Assembly (NCBI RefSeq): GCF_000091665.1
Contig: NC_000909.1
Span: forward strand, 1,404,118 to 1,436,117
Direction of reading: 5' to 3'
Length of the DNA stretch: 32,000 nt
DNA from: Methanocaldococcus jannaschii DSM 2661
GTDB lineage: Archaea > AGJL01 > Methanococci > Methanococcales > Methanocaldococcaceae
The notes under the pieces: generated by a model
What the model was told of the DNA's origin: nothing
Seen by the model: the letters and a program-made list of their open reading frames with translations, nothing else
Database searches by the model: none
Shown: positions 3,041 through 30,078 of the stretch, piece by piece
Position numbering within the stretch: position 1 is the first letter of the stretch
Layout: the number at the start of each line of letters is the position of its first letter
Made by a program: the position numbers and the translations under genes

Positions 3041-3193
3041 TTTTATGGAAGGGAGAACTTATGCATTATCATGAACCTTTAATAAAGGTTCATCAAAATG
3101 AGTGGGGCTTCACTTCGTTCAGCTCCACTTTATTTATAGCTACAAAAGTAATGGAGTGATTTTTTATGGAAGGAAAAGCCTATGCATTAGCAT
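3041..3193. repeat. Palindromic repeat element (MJRE-like) flanked by a 32-bp imperfect direct duplication of the aroK SD/start region
   Basis: 3041-3072 vs 3162-3193 are 27/32 identical without gaps. Perfect hairpin ATGAACCTTT-AAT-AAAGGTTCAT at 3071-3093; hairpin AGTGGGGCT-(11 nt)-AGCTCCACT at 3101-3129. Confidence 0.8.
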
Positions 3194-4014
3194 CTGGGAC
3201 AATAATAAACGCTATAGCAACAGGTAAGGGTTCAGCTTTTGGATTAGATTTAAAGGTTTATGCCAAAGTTAAACTTATAGATGATGGAAAAAACAAAATA
3301 GAGGGTAAAGTTTTAGATAATCCAAACATTAAGCCAAATTTAATAGTAAGATGTGTCAAAAATACTTTAGATTATTTTGGGCTGAATTACTCTGCCTATG
3401 TTGAAACAAAGACAGAAATTCCTATAAAATCTGGATTGAGTAGTAGTTCAGCCACTTCTAACGCAGTTGTTTTGGCAACATTTGATGCATTAGGGGAAAA
3501 AATAGATGATGAGCTAATATTAAATTTAGGGATAAAATCAAGTTTTGATGAAAAATTAACTGTTACTGGAGCTTATGATGATGCTACTGCATCATACTAT
3601 GGGGGAATAACAATAACTGACAATATAGAAAGAAAAATTTTAAAAAGAGATAAGATGAGAGATGATTTAAACGTCTTAATATTAATTCCAAATTTAGAAA
3701 AGAATGTTGATGTAAATAGAATGAAGCTAATAAAGGATTATGTTGAAATTGCCTTTAATGAGGCTATAAATGGAAACTATTTCAAAGCTTTATTTTTAAA
3801 TGGAATTCTTTATGCATCAGCTTTAAACTTTCCAACAAACATAGCAATAGACGCATTAGATGCTGGGGCAATAACAGCCGGTTTATCTGGAACAGGTCCA
3901 AGTTATATAGCCATGGTTGAAGATGAAAATGTTGAAAAGGTAAAAGAAAAATTAAATAGGTATGGAAAGGTTATTTTAACTAAACCAAACAATGATGGAG
4001 CTTCTATTTACTAA
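3166..4014 (+). CDS. aroK: Archaeal GHMP-family shikimate kinase
   Basis: GHMP kinase phosphate-binding motif [11 protein letters not shown]. Length and sequence match the non-orthologous archaeal shikimate kinase first identified in M. jannaschii. Confidence 0.9.
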
Positions 4015-4158: not shown

Positions 4159-7100
4159 ATGAAAATCACATTTTATATGTGGGCATCTTATTGCTCAATA
4201 TTAAAAAAGGCGTTGGATGAGCTTAAAAAAGAAGGAGTAGATGTTGAATATAAAATATATTCTAACAGAAATCCAATTGATGATGAGTTTTTAGAGGATG
4301 CAAAAGATTATGATTTAGTTTTTATTTATAGAACATCATCAGATGATATTGATTTAGAGAAGATAAAGAAGTTCAATGAAAACGTTATAGTTGTTGCCCA
4401 AGACCCAAACTTTTGGAATTCTGAAAAATCTGCTAAATGTTATTTATTTATAACTTATGGAGGTTTAGATAACTTCAAAAATATGGTTTTATATCTAATG
4501 GGTAAAGATAAAGATGTTGTAAAGCATCCATTCCAAGGTATCTATTATAGAGGCAAAATTTATGAAGAATTAGAAGAATTTTTAAAAGACGTTGAGTTTA
4601 ATAAAAAATATACGGTGGGGATTTTATTCTCAAGGCATTATTTAGTTAATGATGATATGGATGTTATTGAGAAGCTATTAAATAGATTGGACAAAGAATT
4701 CAATGTAATTCCAGTATTTTCCTATGGAGCTAAGTGTGAGGATTTAAATGCCTTAGGTAGTGGAGAGAGTGTTTTAAAATACTTCCTTAAAGATGATAAG
4801 CCAATAATAGACGCCTTAATCAATCTACTGTCATTTCCATTGGGAACTGTAAAAGATAAGGCTAATTTAAACAAAATCTCTGGAGTAGAGATACTTAAAA
4901 AGTTAGATGTGCCAGTATTTCATCCAATAATGAGTTATTATAAAAGCTATGAGGATTGGAAAAAAGATGAGCAAGGTTTATCTGCAGATATTGGTTGGAC
5001 TATAGCCTTGCCAGAGTTTGAAGGGGTTATAGAACCGATTATCATTGGAACTACTGAAAATGAGAACGGCTTAGAGAAGAAGTTTGGTATTGAGGAAAGG
5101 ATAGACAAAGTTGTTAGAAGAATAAAGAGATGGATTGAGCTAAAATACAAACCTAAGAAAGATAGAAAGGTTATATTTATATTGCATAACAATGCATGTG
5201 CATCTGTTGAGGCAACTGTGGGAAGTGCTGCCCATTTAGACAGCTTTCAAAGTGTTATAAACATAATGAAGAAGTTGAAGGAAGAGGGCTACTATGTAGA
5301 AAATATTCCAGAAAATGGAGAGGAGTTAGCTCAGCTAATTATGCAGAAGAAGGCAATTTCAGAGTTTAGATGGACTACCGTAAATGAGATTATAGCTAAA
5401 GGAGGATATCTATACTTAATGGATGAAGAAGAGTATTATGAATACTTCAACACACTGCCAGAGAATGTAAAAAATAAAATTTTAGAAACATGGGGAGATT
5501 TAAATGGTAAAGACATCCCAGCAGGAATGATTTATAAAGTTAATGGAAAAAATAAGATAGTTATAACTGGTTTAAAGTTTGGGAATGTCTATGTTTGTGT
5601 TCAACCAAAAAGAGGATGTGCTGGGGCAAGATGTGATGGAAGAGTTTGTAAGATATTACACGACCCTTATTGCCCACCAACTCATCAATATATAGCATCA
5701 TATAAATATTTTAATGACATTGCTGACATAATAATCCACGTTGGTACTCATGGAACTTTGGAATTTTTACCTGGAAAAAACGTTGGTTTATCTAACGAAT
5801 GCTATCCAGACATCTGTATTGGAGATATTCCTCATCTCTATATTTATAATTCAGATAATCCACCAGAGGGAACTATAGCAAAGAGAAGAAGCTATGCAAC
5901 TATTATTGATCACATGCAAACAGTTATGGTTGATGCATTTTATGAAGAGTTGGAGACATTAGATAGCTATATAGAGGAGTATTTAAAGGAGATGGATGCT
6001 TCAAGAAGGCATCAGTTAGAGCATTTGATAGTTGAGGAAGTTAAAAAAACCAATTTATTGAAAATTAAAGAAAAAATTGAGAAGATTGAAAAAGAAGGGA
6101 AAATCCATGAGAACTTTAAAGAGATATTTGATGAGCTAAGAGATATCTTAGAGATGATAAAGAACTCGAAGTGCAATGATGGAATGCATATCTTTGGAGA
6201 ACTTCCAAGTGGAGAGAAGAGAGTTGAGTTTATAAAGAGTATTTTAGAGGCGATATTCATCCAGAATAATACTATGAATAGTAAAAGGAGAGGCATTGCC
6301 GAGCGAAGCGAGGCAATGCATCCGGGGTATCCCAATAGGGGGCTTCCCCCTATGGAGTTTGAGTATAAAGATAAAAACCTAAAGAAGAAAGTTTCAGATG
6401 TATTAAATGGAAAGAGTATAGAAGATAAAAAATTAGAGGAGAAGATTAAGGATATCAATGAGAGAATTGAAAAATCAGATGAGATTGGCTCTTTGTTGAG
6501 AGGCATTGATGCCAAATATATAGAGCCAGGGCCTTCTGGGCTGATAACAAGAGGAAACTATGATATCTTACCAACAGGAAGGAACTTTTACTCATTAGAC
6601 CCATACCGAATTCCTACGAAATCTGCTTATAGAGTAGGGGTTTTATTAGCTGAAAAATTAATTAATAGATATTTAGAGGAGGAGGGAAGGTATCCTGAAA
6701 ACATAGCTCTATATTGGATGGCATCTGATATAATGTGGGCTGATGGGGAAGGAATGGGGATGATTTTATATCTATTGGGTGTTAAGCCAGTTTATAGAGG
6801 AGGGAGAGTTGTTGGCTTAGAAGTTATTCCATTGGAGGAGTTGGGAAGACCAAGGATTGATGTAACCATTAGAGTTAGTGGAATAACAAGGGATATGTTC
6901 CCAAACTGCATAGAGCTTGTTGATGAGGCAATAATGAAAGTTGCTAACTTAGATGAGCCATTGGAGATGAACTTTGTAAAGAAGCATGTTGTTGAGAACT
7001 TAAATAAAGGCCTATCATTTAGAGAATCAACATTTAGAATCTTCTGCTCTCCTCCTGGCACTTATGGAAATGGTGTTAAATATGCAGTGTATGCAAGTGC

Positions 7101-7839
7101 ATGGGAAAATGATGAAGATTTAAAAGATGCATTTATCTACTGGAACTCCTATGCCTATGGAAAGGATGTCTATGGAAAGAAGGCGATTAATGCATTTGAA
7201 AATATATTAAAGACAGTTGATTTAACATTTAATAAAGTTGTTACAGATGAGTATGATTTATTTGGATGTTGTTGCTACTTTGGAACGCATGGAGGTTTAA
7301 CAAATGCCGCAAGGGTTTTAAAAGGAGAAGAGGTTAAGGCATATTATGGAGATACAAGAAATCCAAACAATGTTGAAGTAAGAACTTTAAAAGAAGAAAT
7401 TGAGAGAGTTAGCTTAACAAAACTCTTAAATCCAAAGTGGATTGAGGGAATGAAGAGGCATGGCTACAAAGGAGCTGGAGATATAGCCAAGAGAATTGGC
7501 AGAGTTTATGGCTGGAGTGCTACAACAAAAGAGGTTGAGAATTGGATATTTGATGAGATATTTAATACGTTCGTGAAAAATGAAGAGAATAGAAAGTTCT
7601 TTAAGGAACACAACATCTATGCCTTAGAAGAGATTGCAAGGAGATTGTTGGAGGCTTATCAAAGAGGATTGTGGAAAACAACTGAAGGGAATATAGAGGA
7701 GCTAAAAAGGGCTTATTTAGAGATTGAGGGAGATATTGAAGAAACCTATAGTAGTATAGCAGATATTGGTGAATTCCAAGGAGGTAGTGTAGATATTGAC
7801 ATGATTTGGAAGGAAAAGCTTATGAGTAATGGGAGATAA
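4159..7839 (+). CDS. cobN: CobN / Mg-chelatase H-family large chelatase subunit
   Basis: 1226-aa ORF with the family signature HVGTHGTLEFLPGK and colinear CobN-like regions. Contains an in-frame GC-rich palindromic insert (separate feature). Confidence 0.9.
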   Translation: MKITFYMWASYCSILKKALDELKKEGVDVEYKIYSNRNPIDDEFLEDAKDYDLVFIYRTSSDDIDLEKIKKFNENVIVVAQDPNFWNSEKSAKCYLFITYGGLDNFKNMVLYLMGKDKDVVKHPFQGIYYRGKIYEELEEFLKDVEFNKKYTVGILFSRHYLVNDDMDVIEKLLNRLDKEFNVIPVFSYGAKCEDLNALGSGESVLKYFLKDDKPIIDALINLLSFPLGTVKDKANLNKISGVEILKKLDVPVFHPIMSYYKSYEDWKKDEQGLSADIGWTIALPEFEGVIEPIIIGTTENENGLEKKFGIEERIDKVVRRIKRWIELKYKPKKDRKVIFILHNNACASVEATVGSAAHLDSFQSVINIMKKLKEEGYYVENIPENGEELAQLIMQKKAISEFRWTTVNEIIAKGGYLYLMDEEEYYEYFNTLPENVKNKILETWGDLNGKDIPAGMIYKVNGKNKIVITGLKFGNVYVCVQPKRGCAGARCDGRVCKILHDPYCPPTHQYIASYKYFNDIADIIIHVGTHGTLEFLPGKNVGLSNECYPDICIGDIPHLYIYNSDNPPEGTIAKRRSYATIIDHMQTVMVDAFYEELETLDSYIEEYLKEMDASRRHQLEHLIVEEVKKTNLLKIKEKIEKIEKEGKIHENFKEIFDELRDILEMIKNSKCNDGMHIFGELPSGEKRVEFIKSILEAIFIQNNTMNSKRRGIAERSEAMHPGYPNRGLPPMEFEYKDKNLKKKVSDVLNGKSIEDKKLEEKIKDINERIEKSDEIGSLLRGIDAKYIEPGPSGLITRGNYDILPTGRNFYSLDPYRIPTKSAYRVGVLLAEKLINRYLEEEGRYPENIALYWMASDIMWADGEGMGMILYLLGVKPVYRGGRVVGLEVIPLEELGRPRIDVTIRVSGITRDMFPNCIELVDEAIMKVANLDEPLEMNFVKKHVVENLNKGLSFRESTFRIFCSPPGTYGNGVKYAVYASAWENDEDLKDAFIYWNSYAYGKDVYGKKAINAFENILKTVDLTFNKVVTDEYDLFGCCCYFGTHGGLTNAARVLKGEEVKAYYGDTRNPNNVEVRTLKEEIERVSLTKLLNPKWIEGMKRHGYKGAGDIAKRIGRVYGWSATTKEVENWIFDEIFNTFVKNEENRKFFKEHNIYALEEIARRLLEAYQRGLWKTTEGNIEELKRAYLEIEGDIEETYSSIADIGEFQGGSVDIDMIWKEKLMSNGR
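6283..6357 (+). repeat. GC-rich palindromic repeat element inserted in frame within cobN (MJRE-like)
   Basis: 38 of 60 nt are G/C in 6291-6350 versus 15 of 50 in 6241-6290. Hairpins GCATTGCC-GAGCGAAGCGA-GGCAATGC (6293-6319) and CC(A)ATAGGGGG-CTT-CCCCCTATGG (6332-6355). Reading frame stays open (..KRRGIAERSEAMHPGYPNRGLPPME..). Confidence 0.75.
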
Positions 7840-29384: not shown

Positions 29385-29385
29385 T

Positions 29386-29397
29386 CTTGCTTTTTTA
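29386..29397 (+). terminator. Oligo-T terminator candidate after the GTPase gene
   Basis: CTTGCTTTTTT immediately after the stop codon. Confidence 0.35.
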
Positions 29398-29592
29398 GAG
29401 TTTATCCTTGTTTTAATGGACTATCGATTTAAACCCTTACTTTTTGCTCTTATTTTATACCTAAACTCCTATATATAGCTTTCTATTTTTATCCAAATTT
29501 TCTTAATACATGATTAAAACCTTTAAAAGATTAAGAAGAAATCTCAATAATTAGATAATGTTTAATATAATCCAAGATCTATTTAACCGTTT

Positions 29593-29659
29593 CCCGTTTC
29601 CATAGCTTACCATAGCATTTAATAACTTACTATACGAATCGGTAAGCTATGGAAATGGG
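29593..29659. repeat. Long hairpin: 19-bp stem (one G-T pair) with 29-nt loop
   Basis: CCCGTTTCCATAGCTTACC (29593-29611) pairs with GGTAAGCTATGGAAATGGG (29641-29659); the central 15 bp are perfect. It lies in a GC-enriched intergenic block. Confidence 0.7.
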
Positions 29660-29894
29660 TTGTCCTCAGCCCATAGCTTCATCGGGAACACCATTCCCTT
29701 CACTATAAGTTCATCAGACTTAGGACTGAACAGATACAGCCCCAAAATCCAAACTTCGTTAATATTTAGTATCAACATTTCGTCTCGAAGGCAAAGCCTC
29801 CTCATTAACATTATGATATAACAATACATATTACTATTTTAATAAAAAAACAATATTTATATTGTGATATTGTTTATTATGATATGCTACTGTA

Positions 29895-29988
29895 AGTTAT
29901 AGAAAATTAAAAACTGTTTCGAACCCTCCTTTTGGAAGACGTTTAAATATTCCATATTGATTTTAATAACTTTTCTAAAGACCGTATA
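29895..29988. repeat. Degenerate second copy of the 9070-9177 MITE-like element
   Basis: Core 29921-29948 vs 9111-9138 is 21/28 identical ungapped (GAAC..C..TTTGGAAG.CGTT.AAAT). Left edge AGTTATAG vs AGTTATATAG. Terminal inverted repeats decayed. Confidence 0.45.
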
Positions 29989-30078
29989 TATAGATTTATA
30001 TATAGATTTATGATTTCTATGGAGTTATTTTGAAGTTATTTTAGAGACATAAAAAATATAATAATAAAATATTATTGT

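Follow-up and report, generated by a model that had tools for sequence, protein, structure and literature searches.

The cobN-type chelatase gene MJ1441 of Methanocaldococcus jannaschii, which lies in the 32,000-nt stretch of DNA analysed here (the window), carries an in-frame insertion of 108 nt whose right, GC-rich part aligns with a family of dispersed hairpin-forming repeats. We consider it highly likely that this is selfish repeat DNA which entered a CobN linker that is disordered and permissive, and that it is just tolerated there and translated. The gene and the parts of the insertion are the following, in window coordinates.

4159-7839, forward strand: cobN-type chelatase gene, MJ1441, 1226 aa (open reading frame, Pfam PF02514, exact sequence match)
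6250-6357, forward strand: in-frame insertion relative to all orthologues, 108 nt or 36 codons (protein and DNA alignments, orthologue length)
6250-6287, forward strand: left segment of the insertion, AT-rich (11/38 GC), outside the conserved repeat core (unaligned to any family copy)
6288-6355, forward strand: repeat core of 'type A', 42/68 GC, made up of hairpin 1, a mini-hairpin and hairpin 2 (covariance model R1, family alignment)
6293-6319, forward strand: hairpin 1, an 8-bp stem with tandem G.A/A.G and a GC-GAA-GC tip (folding, family covariation)
6332-6355, forward strand: hairpin 2, ATAGGGGG-CTT-CCCCCTAT (6335-6353) with a CC/GG extension and one bulged A (folding, family alignment)

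The product of 4159-7839 matched PF02514 with 1203 bits over profile positions 3-1088 of 1090 and is identical to AAB99452.1 / Q58836 of M. jannaschii. A preliminary description of this DNA had pointed to a GC-rich double hairpin inside the gene, and its base counts were reproduced on recounting (38/60 G+C in 6291-6350 against 15/50 in 6241-6290), as were the uninterrupted reading frame across the element and the positions of the two hairpins (8-bp stem at 6293-6319; 6332-6355 with one bulge). The 32-kb window has an average GC content of 31% and contains three 40-nt stretches with at least 60% GC, the element among them.

Alignments with 18 and then 62 homologues revealed that the inserted segment EAIFIQNNTMNSKRRGIAERSEAMHPGYPNRGLPPM (36 aa) is unique to the protein encoded in the window, which is the outcome the preliminary description had predicted for the lineage. 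The CobN proteins of FS406-22 and M. bathoardescens, which fall into the same 90%-identity cluster, are 1190 aa long (1226 - 36), and the insertion is also missing from the CobN of M. fervens and from a metagenome CobN at 94% amino acid identity. At the DNA level, comparison with an ENA metagenome contig (L001), M. fervens (L002/L005) and FS406-22 (L004) uncovered an empty site in which ATT TT(A/G) GAG runs directly into TTT GAG, while the window reads ATT TTA GAG, then 108 nt, then TTT GAG. Both junctions carry T(A/G)GAG, which makes the register of the insertion ambiguous by up to 5 nt, from 6245-6352 to 6250-6357. The earlier proposal of a lineage-specific, in-frame insertion thus stands on clean empty sites, with two corrections: the segment comprises 36 aa (108 nt) and not about 25 aa, and its left boundary lies at 6245-6250, further upstream than the 6283 first assigned. 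Outside the insertion, cobN shares 88.9% DNA identity with FS406-22 and 94% protein identity with its closest relative; the gene is thus otherwise conserved, and the insertion is younger than the split from those lineages. A metagenome-assembled genome (MAG) of M. jannaschii, independent of the reference, has the identical gene with the insertion.

The inserted DNA is exceptionally structured. Hairpin 1 is formed by the arms GCATTGCC (6293-6300) and GGCAATGC (6312-6319) around the loop GAGCGAAGCGA, and a mini-hairpin GGG-TAT-CCC is present in the core besides hairpins 1 and 2. The RNA fold of 6275-6365 (91 nt) reached -36 kcal/mol (z = -3.3), with 0/200 shuffles as good, and the element is the lowest-energy of all 80-nt windows in the 32 kb (mean -9.5, standard deviation 4.5 kcal/mol). 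At 85 °C, the growth temperature of M. jannaschii, both hairpins persist in the predicted RNA fold (-5.3 kcal/mol versus a mean of -0.07 for other cobN 72-mers). Neither Rfam nor a tRNA search yielded a family or a tRNA at the element. The tip of hairpin 1 (6301-6311) reads GA-GCGAAGC-GA, and hairpin 2 closes on C-GAA-G in most family copies; d(GCGAAGC) is a DNA mini-hairpin of exceptional heat stability, and such a tip would suit an element needing to fold as a DNA single strand at 85 °C.

Looking for hairpins near CGAAG motifs identified a sibling of the core on the minus strand of FS406-22 intergenic DNA (L004:2177-2246). When the 18-base pattern conserved between the cobN and L004 copies was scanned against one genome per species, nine stretches matched, and eight of these come from genomes and MAGs of Methanocaldococcus or Methanocaldococcaceae. 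With the cobN copy included, ten type-A copies align over about 66 nt at a mean column identity of 83% (consensus AAGAGGCAYTGCCGAGCGAAGCGAGGCARTGCATCCYGGGTATCCCAATAGGGCGAAGCCCTATGG), and their similarity ends abruptly at both sides. The earlier suspicion that the GC-rich part belongs to a repeat family was therefore well founded, since 8 other Methanocaldococcus loci hold repeats with which it aligns. Hairpin 1 covaries within the family: 8/12 pairs are altered on both sides, and the observed covariation score was reached by 0/500 shuffles, where the positions fixed by the 18-base search pattern are invariant by construction and uninformative on covariation; 92% of hairpin 1 cells are paired, a share that drops to 35-41% once the partner is slid. 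The stem of most copies runs through the tandem G.A/A.G to an RC-GAA-GY tip, and two copies have ordinary Watson-Crick pairs at those positions. The covariance model R1 scored the cobN copy at 81.1 bits (E = 1e-21) over model positions 1-70 of 70, covering both hairpins, although this copy is itself one of the ten sequences from which R1 was built, and the independent support is its pairwise alignment to L004. R1 matches range from 81 to 98 bits, and the model also recovers further diverged copies. Taken together, alignment and model place the cobN element in the type-A family as R1 defines it. Examination of 14 copies of the family showed a single one, that of cobN, in frame within a long open reading frame; the core is without stops in four of six frames, so its in-frame survival needs no special explanation.

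The left segment of the insertion, 6250-6287 (GCGATATTCATCCAGAATAATACTATGAATAGTAAAAG), showed no similarity to plasmid, phage and viral contig collections or to the fetched loci. Its origin as a decayed target duplication was ruled out by the lack of flanking cobN similarity (p = 0.78 upstream, 0.96 downstream), and it resembles no other module of the family, which ruled out that source too. A plasmid, phage or viral origin of the element as a whole was likewise discarded, as no match was present in such collections.

The site of insertion is the start of a linker between the conserved blocks DGxHIFG...P.GE and GPSG...LPTGRNFY, and the length of this linker differs by more than 70 residues among homologues. 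An AlphaFold2 model of residues 31-1226 was built with 63 sequences and has a mean predicted local distance difference test score (pLDDT) of 74. Model residues 668-707, the stretch that contains the insertion, lie between helices 656-668 and 711-719 and stay under a pLDDT of 50, with values of 23-29 when averaged over ten-residue blocks. As to the mapping onto a CobN or ChlH structure that had been suggested, the linker of the window CobN cannot be aligned with its counterpart in ChlH (structures 4ZHJ and 6YT0) or in the solved CobN (9UK9). On the basis of the model, the 36 extra residues are probably disordered and surface-exposed within the variable linker. The 37-aa peptide had no relatives in a word-index search of 5.8 billion clusters and no credible relative in a HMMER search of 1.84 billion representative proteins; two HMMER matches were dismissed as spurious, being eukaryote-like tandem-repeat proteins that score by repetition. 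A homologous peptide in distant CobN proteins, which would have told against a lineage-specific insertion, was found neither among the 62 aligned homologues nor among the 1.84 billion representatives.

The window contains a further, intergenic relative of the cobN element, which is flanked by a duplication of the start of the neighbouring GHMP-kinase gene.

3074-3135, reverse strand: intergenic modular relative ('type C'), consisting of a hairpin-1 module with loop GAACGAAGTGA followed by another hairpin, ATGAACCTTT-ATT-AAAGGTTCAT (R1, bridging copy)
3041-3071, forward strand: left copy of the ~31-nt duplication, a decayed copy of the GHMP-kinase ribosome-binding site and opening 9 codons (M. 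fervens/FS406-22 alignment)
3161-3192, forward strand: right copy of the ~31-nt duplication, the functional start of the GHMP-kinase open reading frame (3166-4014) (M. fervens/FS406-22 alignment)

As noted before, the loop of the cobN hairpin is shared with the intergenic hairpin at 3101-3129; GAGCGAAGCGA and GAACGAAGTGA differ at three positions, two of which form one compensatory G-C to A-T pair. The match of R1 to 3074-3135, its sole other match in the window, is weak (11.4 bits, E = 0.067), and a raw local alignment of the cobN element with the intergenic region stayed at chance level (score 22 versus a shuffle mean of 21.9). The kinship proposed for the two elements is instead borne out through their loop architecture and a bridging metagenome copy, L019:355-421 (R1 25.4 bits, E = 9e-6), in which a type-A-like hairpin 1 is joined to the second module of the intergenic element in the window (ATTTTGATGAACCTTTT...AAAAGGTTC). 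When metagenomes were scanned for the cobN hairpin-2 variant, a 'type B' arrangement emerged that has only the 3' module GGGGTATACCAATAGGGGG-NNN-CCCCCTATGG in common, and hairpin 2 of the cobN copy corresponds to this module. Because the three arrangements share single modules, the family is, as judged from these alignments, modular with at least three arrangements (types A, B and C). In about 38 kb of M. jannaschii sequence there are three members of three types (6288-6355; 3074-3135; L023:2566-2640), or one per 12.6 kb. The third of these, on the minus strand of the M. jannaschii MAG and roughly 3.2 kb upstream of where the window begins, has the type-B-like core TATTAATTAGGACTGAAAGTCCTAACTTAATAGACGGGTGGTATACCAATAGGAGGTTTCCTCCTATGG and directly follows the stop of a DUF87/HerA-like gene; FS406-22 has a type-A copy in the same intergenic region. 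At L019:1-520, at least 3-4 modules are nested in both orientations beside a tRNA-like sequence whose 3' end is apparently duplicated (...AATACGCCCCAGCCGAGATTCAAAC... and ...AATACGCCCCGGCCGGGATTCGAACCC...).

Long direct repeats of local sequence, 28-59 nt in length, abut five of the nine non-coding type-A copies at 0-10 nt from the core.

L004:2084-2272: direct repeats of 59 nt
L009:2377-2565: direct repeats of 41 nt
L011:4784-4972: direct repeats of 50 nt
L012:2094-2282: direct repeats of 53 nt
L013:375-563: direct repeats of 28-30 nt

Empty sites confirmed target duplication in two cases, the window's intergenic element and the FS406-22 type-A copy. The site of the intergenic element (3072-3160) is empty in M. 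fervens, where the intergenic gap is 12 nt, and filled in FS406-22, and the left duplication copy at 3041-3071 is now a 9-codon remnant, MEGRTYALS*. The target duplicated by the FS406-22 type-A copy (L004) is the beginning of hisI (PRA-CH), of which the M. jannaschii MAG has a single copy (L023:2640-2680). Variable target duplications of 28-59 nt are unusual for small hairpin repeats. In Methanocaldococcus sp. 16A (L013:27-590), a 150-aa Fe-S cluster open reading frame has a type-A copy about 5 codons ahead of its stop. It gains a new C-terminal tail ending within the element (...CIRVKEALPSEAR), and its former end, GTCFFNCIRVRGEA, recurs as a duplicate downstream.

Type-B copies occur at one end of CRISPR arrays, within the terminal repeat after base 14, in at least four arrays with different spacers. 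The CRISPR repeat of these arrays is GTTAAAATCAGACCGTTTCGGTATGGAAAT, and TCAGACC stands on both sides of the insert.

L015:5933-6138: CRISPR-linked type-B copy
L016:2336-2541: CRISPR-linked type-B copy
L018:1947-2152: CRISPR-linked type-B copy
L020:2513-2760: CRISPR-linked type-B copy
L021:452-657 (same contig as L011): CRISPR-linked type-B copy
L022:789-994: CRISPR-linked type-B copy

A speculative and rather doubtful picture of the family as a whole is that of modular hairpin cassettes whose long, variable target duplications rebuild genes hit near their ends, with one subfamily in CRISPR terminal repeats; this might point to widely staggered cuts or copy-in synthesis, possibly by a Cas1-type or other integrase, and the left 38-43 nt at cobN might be a by-product (transduced donor flank or filler DNA). 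We know of no such integrase described for archaeal repeats without terminal inverted repeats. Long target duplications of variable length occur in the IS1634 group and IS1182, and Cas1-type integration duplicates a repeat of about 30 bp. These systems resemble the present family in that long duplications flank the insert; the length here is not fixed, and a link to any of their enzymes is a lead only.

For the cobN element itself, the course of events that we favour would begin with a non-autonomous hairpin repeat, common in Methanocaldococcus, inserting into cobN along with 38-43 nt of AT-rich DNA; this would have taken place in the M. jannaschii lineage once it had split from FS406-22 and M. 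bathoardescens. The insertion would have survived because its 108 nt are a multiple of three, free of stops in frame, and landed at the start of a length-variable linker; the gene would then be read through to give a CobN with 36 extra residues, presumably at no cost to the protein. The hairpins would belong to the repeat family as such, kept intact there through selection or through the way the repeat is copied, and would be no adaptation of cobN. Several observations weigh against this course of events. The left 38-43 nt of the insertion are foreign to the recognisable repeat; only a single sequence version of the insertion is available, that of the reference genome being also that of the one MAG; and about 38 kb of M. 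jannaschii sequence (the window and 5.8 kb of the MAG) contained no second type-A copy, with none in the 32-kb window by a 3-mismatch pattern, blastn-short or the covariance model run without filters. The cobN copy is moreover without a long target duplication and has only the ambiguous 3-5 nt T(A/G)GAG at its junctions; as long duplications are present at other copies, the cobN insertion may have differed from theirs.

The same evidence was weighed for other explanations of the segment. A role of the hairpins in cis, either as a ribosome pause or transcript stabiliser in the mRNA or as a DNA cruciform serving as a recombination or replication-pause site, would be in keeping with the element being the sole part of the cobN mRNA predicted to be folded at 85 °C (-5.3 versus a mean of -0.07 kcal/mol), with the compensatory changes that maintain hairpin 1 across the family and with the GCGAAGC tip, an unusually stable DNA mini-hairpin. 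Such a role is unnecessary, since every orthologue does without the hairpins; the covariation is a family property that is present in intergenic copies on either strand too, and at -5 kcal/mol the structure offers a translating ribosome little resistance, so that we regard this explanation as unlikely. The proposal that the repeat was exapted as a protein segment, with the 36 residues gaining a function in CobN such as a new interaction surface or a regulatory loop, could draw on a frame kept open in a gene otherwise under purifying selection (94% amino acid versus 89% DNA identity to relatives) and on an insertion whose sequence does not differ between the reference genome and an independent MAG. 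The open frame, however, is expected from survivorship alone, given a core that is stop-free in four of six frames, and the peptide is confined to one species, lacks homologues in 1.84 billion proteins and 5.8 billion clusters, and is predicted to be disordered, with an AlphaFold confidence of 23-29 over the inserted residues; exaptation therefore appears quite improbable, and we do not retain that part of the preliminary description. Removal of the segment as an archaeal bulge-helix-bulge intron or an intein-like peptide is very improbable, even though archaeal protein-gene introns exist and the RNA within this coding region is strongly structured: in place of the 3-nt bulges and 4-bp helix of a bulge-helix-bulge motif, the junctions are unpaired in RNA and DNA folds, without complementarity on inspection or any helix joining 6245-6250 with 6352-6357, and Rfam gave no match. 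The segment is also exactly 36 codons long and stop-free, neither of which splicing would require. An intein has at least about 130 aa, begins with Cys or Ser and ends in His-Asn followed by Cys, Ser or Thr; the 36 aa found here are far under that size, start with Ala or Glu and end in Pro-Met-Glu, with no Cys or Ser at the junction and no His-Asn. The reverse history, in which an ancestral segment was deleted in the other lineages, is effectively refuted at the level of the alignments, as the segment is missing from all aligned archaeal and bacterial homologues and a dispersed repeat, located in intergenic DNA elsewhere too, makes up its right 68 nt. Tolerated insertion of repeat DNA into the linker thus remains the explanation that we prefer.

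Palindromic repeats fused into protein genes of M. jannaschii have been described (Suyama et al. 2005, cited in PMC2229807 and PMC2996958), in agreement with the preliminary description, which placed a few MJRE-type repeats in coding regions. Like the cobN element and its relatives, MJRE are palindromic, hairpin-forming elements of M. jannaschii, about 100 nt long, mostly intergenic and divided into three groups, and the traits of MJRE2 recur in the cobN element, which forms hairpins, measures about 100 nt (108) and lies in a coding region with the frame open. The original study by Suyama, Lathe and Bork in 2005 (FEBS Lett 579:5281) reportedly distinguished MJRE1-3, 141 elements in three groups per 1.66 Mb, and is said to have placed three MJRE2 copies in coding regions with the frame unbroken. 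The density of the present family (three per ~38 kb) agrees with this MJRE density. It is very probable that the cobN element is a member of the published MJRE2 group, to which it is likened by these traits and not by a consensus. The abstract of the 2005 study is not known to mention long target duplications, modularity, genus-wide spread or CRISPR association, all of them features found here, and the long target duplications and the subfamily in CRISPR terminal repeats may be new.

Rickettsia palindromic elements (RPE) were reportedly presented by Ogata et al. in Science in 2000. These and the protein-coding palindromic repeats of Wolbachia are small selfish elements found in frame in housekeeping genes, where they mostly fall in non-structured surface segments and are translated as part of the protein (PMC2996958). 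RPE differ from the cobN family in being bacterial and unrelated in sequence, which makes the parallel one of analogy only, and many of their copies are coding, compared with 1/14 here. In-frame coding repeats are accordingly an already known phenomenon, reported from M. jannaschii in 2005 and from Rickettsia in 2000, and the cobN case therefore opens no new question. Bacterial REP/BIME, Correia/NEMIS, ERIC and MITE-like repeats share with the type-A family a short, GC-rich, hairpin-forming, non-autonomous, dispersed and mostly intergenic nature, but their target duplications span 2-10 bp in contrast to the 28-59 bp seen here. The terminal inverted repeats of MITEs are absent from the family, whose ends AAGAGGCA... 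and ...CCCTATGG are not mutually inverted (at the cobN junctions, the best inverted match on inspection is 6/10 bases), as is the short target duplication of fixed length, with an ambiguous 3-5 nt at cobN and 28-59 nt elsewhere.

Some further features lie near cobN in related genomes or elsewhere in the window. In FS406-22, a TnpB/Cas12f-like gene (L004:15234-16499; Pfam MJ0013, Cas12f1-like_TNB) is located 1.7 kb downstream of cobN, and in the M. jannaschii MAG a 188-aa open reading frame and a MamF_MmsF open reading frame lie between cobN and an XPG/FEN gene, a layout unlike that of FS406-22. The window also has a 690-nt gap without a convincing open reading frame (29385-30078), within which 29575-29705 is predicted to fold very stably around a 14-bp stem, TTCCATAGCTTACC/GGTAAGCTATGGAA (-39.1 kcal/mol, z = -6.4). 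Searches of 29385-30078 gave no tRNA, nor did any Rfam family reach the gathering threshold; the sole match was a weak one to CRISPR-DR7 at 29400-29434 (E = 0.009). The structure could be a non-coding RNA lacking annotation or another type of repeat.

The cobN insertion, with its empty sites in sister species and its disordered linker, is a clean and datable example of selfish palindromic DNA joining an archaeal protein, which lends itself to textbook use and to testing by deletion or proteomics in M. jannaschii. The family is more interesting than the cobN case: its covariation, recombining modules, 28-59 bp duplications and CRISPR subfamily would, if undescribed, provide a handle on how such elements move in archaea.

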